In this document: positions 11,769 through 49,829 of the stretch, in pieces
Layout: every line of letters starts with the position of its first letter
Numbering within the stretch: position 1 is the first letter of the stretch
Assembly (NCBI GenBank): GCA_050253075.1
Contig: JBFWJS010000004.1
Span: 1 to 64,000 of the forward strand
DNA length: 64,000 nt
From: Deferribacterales bacterium
Lineage (GTDB): Bacteria; Chrysiogenota; Deferribacteres; Deferribacterales; Geovibrionaceae
Direction: 5' to 3'
Position numbers and translations under genes: made by a program
Notes under the pieces: model-generated
Told to the model about the DNA's origin: nothing
What the model saw: only the letters and a program-made list of their open reading frames with translations
Database searches by the model: none

Positions 11769-11810
11769 AAAAAAAAACGCCCGGCAGTTTCTTTTGAAAC
11801 AGCCCAGACG
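11769..11810 (-). terminator. Riboswitch expression-platform terminator
   Basis: CGTCTGGGCTGTTTC-AAAA-GAAACTGCCGGGCG followed by T9; the 5' arm overlaps the aptamer 3' hairpin. Confidence 0.8.
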
Positions 11811-11876
11811 CACGGCTTAAATATTATCGGCTGCACTCCCCGGAGGTACTCCTCCAAATGCGTCAGTCATGCAGCT
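11800..11876 (-). ncRNA. ZTP (pfl) riboswitch aptamer
   Basis: Minus strand GCTGCATGACTGACG...GGGGAGTGCAGC-linker-GCCGTGCGTCTGGGC matches the pfl consensus; loop CGTC can pair with GACG (pseudoknot); lies upstream of glyA. Confidence 0.9.
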
Positions 11877-12003
11877 AAGTAGAAAATAATAAACTTCGGC
11901 CAACTTGTCAAAGGTTTATTTGATGTTCAAAAATTATGCAATTTTTTTATCAAATCAATTAGTCTTTGTTGATTATTTTTTAACCATAATATATATTCGA
12001 AAT

Positions 12004-33499: not shown

Positions 33500-34042
33500 T
33501 TACTTAGCAGCTTTTGCAAGTTCGATACCTGCAGCGATCGCGTTTTTGTTAAGCTCTTCTGTACCTTTTGGTACGCGGGATAGAACAGCTTTCTCAAGTG
33601 TCTCAGGAGCAACAAGTCCGCAAATCTCGTTAAGAGCGCCGAGTGTTACAACGTTAGCAACCATAGCCTTGCCCACTTTTTCAGCAGCAGTTCTGATGAT
33701 TGGCATCATGTAAACTTTCCAGTCGCCTTTAGGAGCCTCTTTAACCATAAGGTCATCGAGGATAAGTATTCCGCCCGGTTTAAGGTCTTTGGAATACTTT
33801 TCAGCAGCTTCCTGTGTAAGAGCTACGAGTATGTCCGGAGCCATTACCTTTGGGTAGTATATCTCTTCATCAGAGATGATAACTTCAGCTTTGGAAGCAC
33901 CACCACGAGCCTCTGGTCCGTAGGACTGAGACTGGATGGATTTTTTGCCTTCGAAAACAGCAGCGCCAGCTGCAAGAATGATACCGGCAGTGATCATACC
34001 CTGTCCGCCGGATCCACTAAGTCTGATTGAAGTTTTAGCCAT
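33500..34042 (-). CDS. korC: 2-oxoglutarate:ferredoxin oxidoreductase gamma subunit
   Basis: GSGGQGMI, QSYGPEARGG. Confidence 0.88.
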   Translation of the reverse strand: MAKTSIRLSGSGGQGMITAGIILAAGAAVFEGKKSIQSQSYGPEARGGASKAEVIISDEEIYYPKVMAPDILVALTQEAAEKYSKDLKPGGILILDDLMVKEAPKGDWKVYMMPIIRTAAEKVGKAMVANVVTLGALNEICGLVAPETLEKAVLSRVPKGTEELNKNAIAAGIELAKAAK

Positions 34043-34056
34043 TTCTAAATCCCCCC

Positions 34057-34863
34057 TTAGCTTAAACCGACGTTAGCGTCGTATGCTTCGATAAATTCAG
34101 GCTTCTCTTCTTGGTGAAGAACGCCTATTGGGAACTTGCCTACTTTTTCTTCGTCAGACATTTTATCCCACTGTGCTTTGTTCACAGAGTGCTCTTTCTG
34201 CCATTCGATCATAGCAGCAGGAGCAGCTATTTTGTTCTTACGGCCGTAACCAGTAGGGCAACCGGCGATGATCTCTACAACAGAGAAACCTTTGTGCTCG
34301 AAAGCCTGCTTGATAACTTTTTCCATAGGAACAGCATGGTATGTTGTGCTTCTGGCAACAAATGTAGCGCCGGCACCGATAGCGAGCTGAGCGATGTCGA
34401 ACTGGTTATCGGAGTTACCGTATGGAGCTGTTGTTGCACGGGCAGCTTTAGGAGTAGTAGGTGAGTACTGACCGCCTGTCATACCGTAGATGTAGTTGTT
34501 AAACACAAGACATGTGATGTTGATGTTACGACGGCATGCGTGGATGAAGTGGTTACCACCGATAGCTGTCATGTCACCGTCACCGCCGAGTGCGATAACG
34601 TTAAGTTCTGGCTTAGCCATTTTAACGCCTGTCGCGAAAGCGAGTGAACGTCCGTGTGTTGTGTGCAGTGTGTTTGCATCAATGTAGCCTGGGAGACGAG
34701 ATGCACAGCCGATACCGGATGTGAAAACAAGTTTATCTTTATCCCAGCCCATGTCGTCTACAGCACGGATAACGGATTTCATGATGATACCGTAACCGCA
34801 GCCTGGACACCAAATATGTGGAATTTTACCTTTTCTAAGGTATTTAGCGTAATCGTAAGCCAT
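34057..34863 (-). CDS. korB: 2-oxoglutarate:ferredoxin oxidoreductase beta subunit
   Basis: WCPGCG, GIGC, TPP motif GDGD...NN, YGMTGGQ. Confidence 0.9.
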   Translation of the reverse strand: MAYDYAKYLRKGKIPHIWCPGCGYGIIMKSVIRAVDDMGWDKDKLVFTSGIGCASRLPGYIDANTLHTTHGRSLAFATGVKMAKPELNVIALGGDGDMTAIGGNHFIHACRRNINITCLVFNNYIYGMTGGQYSPTTPKAARATTAPYGNSDNQFDIAQLAIGAGATFVARSTTYHAVPMEKVIKQAFEHKGFSVVEIIAGCPTGYGRKNKIAAPAAMIEWQKEHSVNKAQWDKMSDEEKVGKFPIGVLHQEEKPEFIEAYDANVGLS

Positions 34864-34865
34864 GA

Positions 34866-36002
34866 TTATTTACCCTCCTTGATCTTGTTAAGGATTGTAA
34901 TAGGTGTGATAGGCTCAGAGTCAATCTGGTTGATACCTTCGATTGATGGAACTGTTCCTTCCATTACACGCTTAACTTCAAGGATCGCCATACCGAGGTT
35001 CATCTCAGGGACGATGATTCTTTTTACTTTGCCTTTGTATTTCTCAAGGTGTCTATCTGGGAAAGGCCAGATTGTAAGTGGTCTGAAAAGACCTACCTTG
35101 ATGCCTTCAGCTCTTGCCATAGCAATAGCTTCTTTAGCAGAACGTGCTGTAGAACCGAATGCGAAGATAAGGATTTCAGCATCCTCTGTCTCCATCTCGT
35201 CTACTTTCACGATTTCGTCGTAGTGATCCATGATCTTGTTTTCCTGACGGATTTCGTCAGCCTGAGCAAGTTTACCGTCGTTTGAAGGGAAACCGTCTTC
35301 AAGGTGGTTAAGACCAGTGATGTGGTATCTGTAGCCAGAACCGAAATCAGCCATAGGAGCTACGCCGTCAGCTTCCGGCTTGTAAGGGAGGTAATCTTCT
35401 GGAGCGCATGTTGGGCGCTTACGATCGACTACTTCAAGATCGCCAGGCTCAGGCATAGTAACAGCCTCTCTCATGTGACCGATGATCTCGTCAGTGAGGA
35501 GGATAACAGGGAGTCTGTATTTTTCAGCTATGTTGAAAGCTCTAACAGTTTCTTCAAGCTGTTCTTGTACTGTAGAAGGTGTGAGAGCAACCGCTGGGTG
35601 GTCACCGTGAGTACCCCATTTAGCCTGCATGATGTCAGACTGTCCAGGACCTGTAGGAAGACCTGTAGAAGGACCGCCTCTCATAACGTTTACTACAACG
35701 CATGGAATCTCTGTGAGATAACCATAACCAAGGTTCTCCATTTTAAGGGACATACCAGGACCTGATGTTGCTGTCATGGATTTTCTTCCCGCGATAGAAC
35801 CACCAAGAGTCGCTGCCATAGCGGCAAGCTCATCTTCCATTTGCACGAAACGTCCGCCAACTTTTGGCAGGCGTGCTGCAAGTATCTCTGCTACTTCAGT
35901 GGAAGGTGTGATTGGGTAGCCACCGTAAAATGTACAGCCAGCGTACAGAGCACCTTCACATACTGCTTCATTCCCCTGAAGGAACTTTACTTCTTTAGCC
36001 AC
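34866..36002 (-). CDS. korA: 2-oxoglutarate:ferredoxin oxidoreductase alpha subunit
   Basis: GNEA, YPITPSTE, ATSGPG, RGGPSTGLPT; substrate inferred from TCA context. Confidence 0.9.
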   Translation of the reverse strand: MAKEVKFLQGNEAVCEGALYAGCTFYGGYPITPSTEVAEILAARLPKVGGRFVQMEDELAAMAATLGGSIAGRKSMTATSGPGMSLKMENLGYGYLTEIPCVVVNVMRGGPSTGLPTGPGQSDIMQAKWGTHGDHPAVALTPSTVQEQLEETVRAFNIAEKYRLPVILLTDEIIGHMREAVTMPEPGDLEVVDRKRPTCAPEDYLPYKPEADGVAPMADFGSGYRYHITGLNHLEDGFPSNDGKLAQADEIRQENKIMDHYDEIVKVDEMETEDAEILIFAFGSTARSAKEAIAMARAEGIKVGLFRPLTIWPFPDRHLEKYKGKVKRIIVPEMNLGMAILEVKRVMEGTVPSIEGINQIDSEPITPITILNKIKEGK

Positions 36003-36017
36003 AAATTCCTCCTAATA

Positions 36018-36212
36018 TTATTTTTTATACACTTCGATCGCGAAATCAGGGCACCTGAGTTCGCACTGCATGCAAGCTATACATTTGTCAAGATCTTTGA
36101 CAGCGGCTTTGAAATCTTTCATTTCAAGAGCGTCAACTGGGCAAAGTTCCACACAAATTTCACAGCCTTTGCAGAGGTTTGTGTAAATTTCGATTTTTTC
36201 TGCCTTAGCCAT
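36018..36212 (-). CDS. korD: 2[4Fe-4S] ferredoxin, delta subunit
   Basis: CKGCEICVELCP and CIACMQCELRCPDFAI. Confidence 0.9.
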   Translation of the reverse strand: MAKAEKIEIYTNLCKGCEICVELCPVDALEMKDFKAAVKDLDKCIACMQCELRCPDFAIEVYKK

Positions 36213-36257
36213 TTACCTCTCCTTTTAAATTTGAGATTCTCAAATCGAATTTATCTT

Positions 36258-36371
36258 AAAGGGGAGCGTCAGACCCTTTTCAGAAAAGACTTTTTTAGTT
36301 TATCTAAACAGTGTTCTGATTTAGACATCCCAAATCAGCCTAGTCTGAAAAGGACCTTTCAGCCCCCCTTT
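36258..36371 (-). ncRNA. Unclassified long rod-like hairpin in the korDABC leader
   Basis: About 45 bp of pairing over ~114 nt with several G-U pairs on the minus strand. Confidence 0.55.
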
Positions 36372-36400
36372 ATTTCCATTAACATTTTTTTCGACACAGT

Positions 36401-36429
36401 GTTATAACCCGATAAAACACATATGTCAA
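36401..36429 (-). promoter_or_regulatory. Sigma70 promoter of korDABC
   Basis: TTGACA-17 nt-TATAAC. Confidence 0.75.
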
Positions 36430-36445
36430 ACATGTAAACAAATAT

Positions 36446-37333
36446 TTATTTTTTCTTTTTCTTAAGGACTTCTGCGACCTTCTTTCCGATATCGGCAGGA
36501 GACTCAACAACATGAACTCCGCACTCCTGAAGAGCCTTCATCTTTGCTGCTGCGGTGTCATCCCCGCCGGAAATTATCGCTCCTGCGTGTCCCATTCTCT
36601 TACCCTTCGGTGCTGTCTGACCTGCGATGAAGCTGACAACAGGCTTAGAGAAATTCTGTTTTATCCACTCGCCCGCCTTCACTTCCGCCTGACCGCCGAT
36701 CTCACCGATGAGAACAACACATTCAGTCTGCGCATCGTACTCGAACATCTCAAGTAGATCGATGTATTTGAGACCGATTATAGGGTCGCCTCCGATACCG
36801 ATACATGTCGACTGACCGTATCCTTCAGCACCGACCTGCTTAACCGCCTCATAAGTCAGCGTACCTGATTTGGATATGATGCCGATAGTGCCCGGTTTAT
36901 GTATTTCGCCAGGCATAATGCCCATCTTACACTCGCCCGGTGTGATAACCCCTGGGCAGTTCGGTCCGATAAGCATTGTGCGGGAAGAGCTGGTCTTCAT
37001 CAGTCTCTTCACCATTATCATATCTTTCACAGGGATGCCTTCTGTTATACATACACAAAGGTCAAGGTTCGCATCCACAGACTCTATCACAGCGTCCGCC
37101 GCATATGCGGGTGGAACATATACTATGGAAGCGTTGGCGCCCGTCTTGCGGATGGCCTCTTCCACTGTGTCAAACACCGGAGTACCGTCAACTTCGGTAC
37201 CGCCTTTACCCGGCACAACACCTGCAACGATGTTTGTACCGTATTCTTTCATCTTTTGTGCGTGAAACTTACCCTGAGAGCCGGTGAGTCCCTGCACAAG
37301 AACTTTTGTTCTGTTGTTTACAAGTATGCTCAT
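36446..37333 (-). CDS. sucD: Succinyl-CoA synthetase alpha subunit
   Basis: [16 protein letters not shown], phospho-His MGHAGAI. Confidence 0.96.
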
Positions 37334-42069: not shown

Positions 42070-42120
42070 CTGTATACAGTATACAGTTATACTTATAGCT
42101 ATATATTTGTCAAGCACTAT
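42070..42120 (-). promoter_or_regulatory. icd promoter with 17-bp palindromic operator
   Basis: CTGTATACAGTATACAG (42070-42086); minus-strand TTGACA (42108-42113), 16 nt, TATAAC. Confidence 0.65.
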
Positions 42121-49786: not shown

Positions 49787-49829
49787 TTGTATTCTGTATA
49801 CAATATTTGGAACATTTGTCAAGCACTAT
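49787..49829 (-). promoter_or_regulatory. acnB promoter with 17-bp palindromic operator
   Basis: TTGTATTCTGTATACAA (49787-49803); atttgtcaagcactat identical to the icd upstream region. Confidence 0.65.

Follow-up and report, generated by a model that had tools for sequence, protein, structure and literature searches.

The leader of korDABC, a 2-oxoglutarate:ferredoxin oxidoreductase-like operon (33500-36212, minus strand, korD first), contains a long RNA rod at 36257..36372 on the minus strand. The rod is a real, selected, previously undescribed leader element of narrow distribution, and the long leader in which it lies very probably consists of two tandem copies of a short ancestral leader of ~90 nt. 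All positions are those of the window, i.e. the whole stretch of 64,000 nucleotides that was analyzed. In the literature searched we found no previous description of the rod, or of bacterial leader rods born by duplication.

The korDABC locus and the genomes compared

The window belongs to genome G000; G001, G002 and G003 are the other three genomes of the genus. The korD-region loci used for comparison carry L numbers. L041 and L042 come from metagenomes and L042 was counted as a duplicate of L041, the same-genus set comprising five leaders (G000, G001, G002, G003 and L041); L013 and L021 end short of the leader and were excluded from leader comparisons. The same pre-RBS leader motif is present in two named Denitrovibrio records, and by this shared motif the leader type is assigned to Denitrovibrio (Geovibrionaceae, Deferribacterota).

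The minus-strand gene order is idh-mdh-sucC-sucD followed by korD-A-B-C. The final gene of the upstream run, sucD (36446..37333), is on the same strand as korDABC and is separated from the gene for the korD-like ferredoxin delta subunit (36018..36212, minus strand) by 233 bp (36445-36213). The sucD, sucC, mdh and monomeric idh matches all exceed the NCBIfam cut-off. For the kor subunits the top NCBIfam matches are the OorD/OGOR delta, alpha, beta and gamma models, mostly below the curated cut-offs; together with the TCA cluster context they suggest that the substrate is probably 2-oxoglutarate. The korD Shine-Dalgarno (SD) sequence (36216..36223, minus strand) is unpaired with the rod.

Some variation was seen at this place in other genomes. 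In G001 (L070) sucC and sucD are absent between mdh and korD, and ~290 nt with palindromic remnants are left. REP-like palindromic elements are inserted in the sucD-korD gap of another genus (L016, L017 and L018); elements related to these account for the REP-like rods of G000 described below. A short ATCTCA/GTCTCA motif is found 5' of the korD RBS in several genera of the family (L019, L020, L022 and L013-L015), sometimes in a hairpin loop.

The internal promoter

A sigma-70-type internal promoter, TTGACA-17-TATAAC, is located at 36401..36429 (minus strand), with TTGACA at 36429-36424, a 17-nt spacer and TATAAC at 36406-36401. It had been proposed in the preliminary description, and the comparisons bear it out: the five same-genus leaders all keep both hexamers and differ in the spacer sequence, and the form TTGAC[AT]-17-TATAAC occurs in three of the four promoter-like sites upstream of the G000 16S genes. 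A consensus promoter scan missed the site because it requires a final T. Judged from its sequence, transcription from this promoter would start near 36394; this start, like the leader length of ~180 nt given earlier, is inferred.

Fourteen letters around the -35 box (36420-36433, minus strand) are identical to the convergence point of two 16S leaders, which we take to be their boxA-like position; the match may be due to chance, or may mark a Nus site on read-through transcripts. In the G000 assembly the rRNA operon is interrupted.

Structure of the rod

The rod has 46 bp, interrupted by one 4x3 and three 2x2 internal loops and one bulge, and ends in a 4-nt apical loop; 92 of its 116 nt are paired, and its basal helices are 11 and 14 bp long. 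It is both the minimum-free-energy and the centroid structure, and the six helices drawn earlier at 36258-36371 on the minus strand are all present as written. The folding energy is about -58 kcal/mol (-57.8 to -58.6; z -9.0) and none of 200 shuffled sequences folds as well. In a census of 839 intergenic stretches of G000, which yielded 310 non-overlapping rods, it is the joint most stable unbranched one.

The opposite (plus) strand folds at -38.3 kcal/mol, which leaves a strand gap of 20.3 kcal/mol. Only one of the 60 top intergenic rods of G000 has a larger gap; 34 of these 60 are REP-like, and their gaps reach 14.5 kcal/mol at most, with a median of 2.5. The oppositions point the same way: six G-U and no A-C in the G000 rod, seven G-U and one C-A in that of G002. 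With 6 G-U out of 46 pairs the label "G-U-rich" was overstated. The argument attached to it, that the G-U pairs reflect selection on the transcribed strand, is supported by these counts and by the G002 covariation and strain variants described below. Mutation bias could explain part of the G-U excess, since C-to-T changes on the coding strand would likewise yield G-U more readily than A-C.

Two further non-REP intergenic rods of G000 are asymmetric, at G000:C8:102161-102309 (plus strand, 25.9 kcal/mol) and G000:C2:648162-648255 (minus strand, 18.9 kcal/mol); possibly they too are structured RNAs.

Directly 5' of the RBS lies a 17-bp palindrome (36229..36245, minus strand). It had been drawn as a second hairpin with a 1-nt loop, which cannot close; it folds with a 3-nt loop. 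The palindromicity is lost and the stem broken in G003 and L041, so this is not a conserved RNA stem. As an operator of a regulon the palindrome was also rejected, being unique among G000 intergenic stretches at up to 2 mismatches.

Distribution and known RNA families

Among 61 genomes the rod is present in two only, G000 and G002. The G002 rod has the same size and place and folds at -54 kcal/mol (z -7.9). A covariance model built from both long forms detected no further locus at E <0.01 among the 61 genomes, where the lack of a match is not proof of absence, and a metagenome scan returned two loci only, both with short-form leaders. In G001, G003, L041 and L042 a single short hairpin lies between the same promoter and the RBS, ~30 nt from each, and the hairpins have in common an A-G...C-U base. 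In other genera of the family the korD leader position is occupied by unrelated hairpins or by REP-like inserts. A widespread new cis-regulatory motif is not supported, with the rod in 2 of 61 genomes and distal arms identical at 13 of 49 positions.

A match to a known RNA family was not found either: Rfam gave no hit at the rod at the gathering threshold, the sole hit in the window being a ZMP/ZTP riboswitch at 11795-11880 (minus strand), which is above its cut-off. Below threshold, the best Rfam match at the rod was to a miRNA model from plants (29 of 100 bits). SRP RNA (RF00169) and 6S RNA (RF00013) do not match at the rod; both score above cut-off on other contigs of G000. Nor is the rod a dispersed repeat, being single-copy in G000 by BLAST and found in none of 60 relatives beyond G002 by BLAST and the covariance model; the plasmid and phage collections contained no rod match. 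A REP or MITE repeat was rejected on the single copy and the strand gap of 20 kcal/mol, against the many copies of similar stability on both strands that characterize such elements.

Origin of the long leader

The preliminary description recognized the rod and overlooked its origin, which in our judgement is in all probability a tandem duplication of the short leader. Copy 1 of the leader unit (36319..36406, minus strand, 88 nt) comprises the -10 box, a linker, hairpin 1 and a decayed copy of the pre-RBS flank. Copy 2 (36224..36318, minus strand, 95 nt) comprises a dead -10 box, a remodelled linker, hairpin 2 and the intact pre-RBS flank. Between the -10 box and the RBS the long leaders span 183 and 187 nt. 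The short ones are 97-103 nt long, and the difference is about one unit. When the long leaders are cut at the apex the first part is 88 nt and the second 95-99 nt, a boundary that was chosen after the repeat had been seen.

Alignment of copy 1 with copy 2 gave z 4.3 in G000 (0 of 1000 shuffles) and z 3.6 in G002 (2 of 1000). When each copy was aligned to the single units of G001, G003 and L041, all 12 comparisons gave z values between 2.9 and 10.5, those for G000 being 3.5-5.8 for copy 1 and 5.9-10.5 for copy 2. The top direct repeat, 17 nt long in G000, has a spacing of 88 nt in both species and joins the -10/+1 stretch to the apex (36305..36319, minus strand), which lies at the duplication junction and is a copy of that stretch. 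An offset (diagonal) scan, which is independent of the chosen cut, peaked at 88-93 in G000 (5/500) and was not significant in G002 (437/500). Outside the hairpins the 5' distal arm of G000 resembles the pre-RBS flank (5/2000); the other within-species flank tests were not significant (G002, 1343/2000 and 818/2000; G000 linker, 288/2000). Tandem Repeats Finder reported no repeat, the copies being ~54% alike and below its range.

The duplication would account for the basal part of the rod as follows. An ancestral leader with one short hairpin, ~30 nt from its promoter and ~30 nt from its RBS, would have been duplicated in tandem over 88 bp, beginning at the -10 box and ending just past the pre-RBS palindrome. 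A hairpin of the form a-loop-a', once present twice, could then cross-pair, a(1) with a'(2) as helix 1 and a'(1) with a(2) as helix 2. The anatomy fits this scheme: hairpin 1, the first copy of the ancestral hairpin (36348..36371, minus strand, -8.2 kcal/mol), gives the 5' strands of helices 1 and 2, and hairpin 2 (36258..36280, minus strand, -4.8 kcal/mol alone) gives the 3' strands of helices 2 and 1. The copies pair better with each other than with themselves in G000 (-25.2 vs -20.0 and -14.9) and in G002 (-29.9 vs -26.6 and -19.7), and the 4x3 internal loop corresponds to the two old hairpin loops facing each other.

The distal half (36281..36347, minus strand), where the flank of copy 1 is paired with the linker of copy 2, is not explained by duplication; its complementarity was acquired afterwards and separately in G000 and G002. 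Distal pairing in G000 amounts to -23.2 kcal/mol (1/500 shuffles), against -5.9 for the un-remodelled working originals. In G002 it is -12.9 (77/500), largely a matter of U-richness, and it is not formed on the plus strand. Distal arms combined across the two species pair no better than shuffles (214/500 and 424/500). Because the originals pair weakly and the cross-species arms do not pair better than chance, the distal zip is placed later and separately in each species. In this scheme the duplication would have produced an A/U-rich loop of ~60 nt, closed up later by substitutions that took different routes in G000 and G002.

Gene trees leave G000, G001 and G002 unresolved; the mdh and sucD splits are starred and conflict with each other, and a G000+G002 clade is unsupported. 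The direction from short to long therefore rests on anatomy and on the linker and loop letters common to G001, G003 and L041.

Conservation and covariation

Between G000 and G002 the promoter region is identical at 55 of 60 positions and the downstream flank at 42 of 46, against 13 of 49 aligned columns in the distal arms; the basal helices are partly changed. All 23 basal pairs are kept, five of them through a double and four through a single change. The covariation score was equalled by 16 of 500 column shuffles, and slid controls paired at 40-67%. Covariation among korD leaders, named in the preliminary description as a check, was thus observed; as it comes from two species, it supports the pairing and does not prove it. 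For comparison, four-fold sites of the two genomes are 65% identical in korA and 42% (62/146) in sucD.

Of the 16 DNA runs containing the stretch, four, each from a different study, were used to compare related strains by their contigs. No RNA run matched more than 9% of the stretch's words. Ten substitution sites were found, all within 36274-36343; the variants cluster in the distal half, and there were none elsewhere in the intergenic region. There are also four indels, three of them in an A run within the rod and the fourth in the linker. In the neighbouring 255 nt of sucD 18 sites are variable. Five of the ten substitutions fall at paired positions, against 92 of 116 nt paired in the rod (P about 0.03). 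A U-A pair has become A-U by a double change in X12 and X13, and the intermediate A-A is seen in X6. A C-U mismatch has become a new G-C pair in X12 and is C-C in X13, and a G-A opposition has become a new G-U pair in X12 and X13. A U-G pair is U-A in X6; a change from U-A to U-G was also seen. Most variants preserve a pair or create one; two break pairs, the A-A of X6 and a U-U beside a deletion in X13. No A-C opposition occurs among the variants of the four runs. At 36385 the A run of the linker is one base shorter in all four runs than in the window, either a strain variant or an assembly slip.

These data bear on the possibility that the rod is a near-neutral by-product, a quasi-palindrome made by duplication and kept by DNA template switching, with little function as RNA. 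Template switching, according to 10.1101/2021.04.15.439925, can create stems, multi-base compensatory changes and biased pair types. The distal arms have moreover diverged faster than synonymous sites (13/49 vs 65%), and the relatives lack the rod. Against this stand the 13 G-U and single A-C oppositions across the two species, and the strand gap of 20 kcal/mol where REP-like DNA palindromes have a median of 2.5. The strain intermediates (A-A in X6, C-C in X13) are stepwise, as expected for point-by-point compensation, and the insert has been retained since the split of G000 and G002. We consider this near-neutral reading unlikely.

The apex and HgtR-type sites

At the apex 14 of 15 letters are common to G000 and G002 while the flanks are scrambled. 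The pairing register of the apex differs between the two, and one of its loop letters is variable in a strain. The HgtR operator has been described as GTATAC-N-GTATAC near the promoter (PMC2817479). The apex and korD leader were rejected as such an operator, the best leader match being 8/12 with a matrix score of 0.9, against at least 18.5 for real sites.

Elsewhere HgtR-type sites do occur. An exact one lies just 3' of the idh -10 box and is conserved in G000-G003. The sites in the window, at 42072-42084 and 49789-49801, are this exact one and a one-mismatch site upstream of an acnB-like gene. All six exact sites of G000 are intergenic, and intergenic DNA makes up ~7% of the genome by a crude mask. 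Further one-mismatch sites are found 5' of nuoA-, ATP synthase F0-, sdhC- and fumarase-like genes, names given by eye from the N-termini. These operator sites suggest that the Geobacter HgtR regulon may extend to Deferribacterota.

Possible function of the rod

The rod looks static: it lies 23-28 kcal/mol below the best local-hairpin fold, the SD is no less accessible than in the short leaders, and the U tract that follows the rod is only 3-4 long. As such it could serve as an RNase III processing site or a nuclease barrier, setting mRNA ends or half-life and uncoupling korDABC from the upstream message; by analogy with known systems we give this reading about an even chance. The rod would then be both an RNase III substrate and a barrier between the idh-mdh-sucCD and korDABC messages. 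RNase III substrates need about two helical turns of double-stranded RNA, a length that the 46-bp rod reaches, its two basal helices measuring 11 and 14 bp. G000 encodes RNase III (PF00636 above cut-off, in a 238-aa open frame) as well as RNase J and an RNase E/G. Relatives have the short hairpin only, and the rod is therefore not essential to the operon.

Of the functions suggested earlier, an RNase III site or stabilizer is still the likeliest. A riboswitch was rejected, the rod being in 2 of 61 genomes, with distal arms identical at 13 of 49 positions and no expression platform; the leader folds contain neither a terminator/antiterminator pair nor SD sequestration.

In prefix folding hairpin 1 forms first, the distal stem nucleates independently and then replaces hairpin 1. 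During transcription, then, hairpin 1 would appear first and the distal stem would form alone, zip downward and displace it. This behaviour would explain how distal pairing can be selected without a fixed sequence.

A leaky intrinsic terminator or a pause, tuning korDABC against the upstream TCA genes, would make use of the same early hairpin, which ends in U4. The basal stem is followed by 3-4 U and then AGAU in all five same-genus leaders, and terminator-like hairpins occur 3' of sucD in other members of the family. However, a scan for a short GC-rich stem with at least 5 U in 8 found none, the canonical terminators of G000 have U tracts of 6-7, and the hairpin would act only ~30 nt past its own promoter with no antiterminator fold. 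Termination or pausing is therefore distinctly unlikely.

The local hairpins can still form in both species (-8.2 and -4.8 in G000, -11.5 and -6.8 in G002), and the apex has kept 14 of 15 letters between scrambled flanks, as might be seen if a ligand or protein switched the leader between the two-hairpin form and the rod, or if a protein bound the apex. The rod is, however, 23-28 kcal/mol below the best local fold and the SD is predicted to be equally open in long and short leaders. Furthermore, the apex registers differ by species, one loop letter varies and the apex is not an HgtR-type operator, so that we regard a switch or apex site as very unlikely. That the rod is the relic of a mobile or REP-like element, or a small RNA of its own with no link to kor, is extremely improbable and largely refuted: G000 is rich in REP-like palindromes and such elements occupy the sucD-korD site in L016 and L018, but the rod is single-copy in G000, has no second locus at E <0.01 in 61 genomes and no plasmid or phage match, and both its halves derive from the local leader.

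Evolutionary meaning and comparison with known systems

Processing by RNase III, or protection from nucleases, would have a local reach, in two Denitrovibrio species of one anaerobe genus; the value of the rod is evolutionary. That larger RNA folds originate by hairpin duplication has long been proposed, usually on the basis of ancient molecules whose precursors are lost. In this case the precursor still exists, alongside two products refined independently and intermediates that are segregating, and the steps can be rebuilt and assayed. The rod is also a warning: a metabolic leader may owe strong covariation and a G-U strand bias to a young structural element and not to a riboswitch. A bolder scheme would read the leaders as a staged record, with a single unit in G001, G003 and L041, a doubled and separately zipped one in G000 and G002, and tuning among strains; a factor binding the apex would choose between hairpin 1 and the rod and so govern RNase III access or read-through into korDABC. 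We regard this scheme as decidedly improbable.

In shape the rod resembles SRP RNA and 6S RNA, which have rod-like folds of ~100-180 nt; neither matches at the korDABC locus. In E. coli the long stem-loops of the sdhB-sucA intergenic region and of the aceE leader are cut by RNase III, with changes in protein levels, according to PMC9731577, which credits the cleavage to Cunningham and Guest 1998 and Gordon et al. 2017. The likeness is a long stem-loop ahead of a 2-oxoglutarate-oxidising TCA enzyme in a cell with RNase III. The phylum and the enzyme are different, however, the sequences are unrelated, the cleavage described in that source is that of the E. coli stem-loops, and the korDABC rod is duplication-born. 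The cspA leader hairpin of S. aureus, where RNase III cleavage is reported to open the RBS and stabilise the mRNA (PMC3386247), is likewise a long 5' hairpin before the RBS in a bacterium with RNase J. There cleavage opens the RBS, whereas the korD SD is predicted to be equally open with or without the rod.

The closest parallel to the proposed origin is the hairpin-duplication model for tRNA (PMC2630981). In that model a hairpin is duplicated directly, the copies cross-pair into a larger fold and the junction comes to lie at the far loop, as proposed here. The product in korDABC differs in being an unbranched mRNA rod of recent origin, with living relatives that have the single unit.
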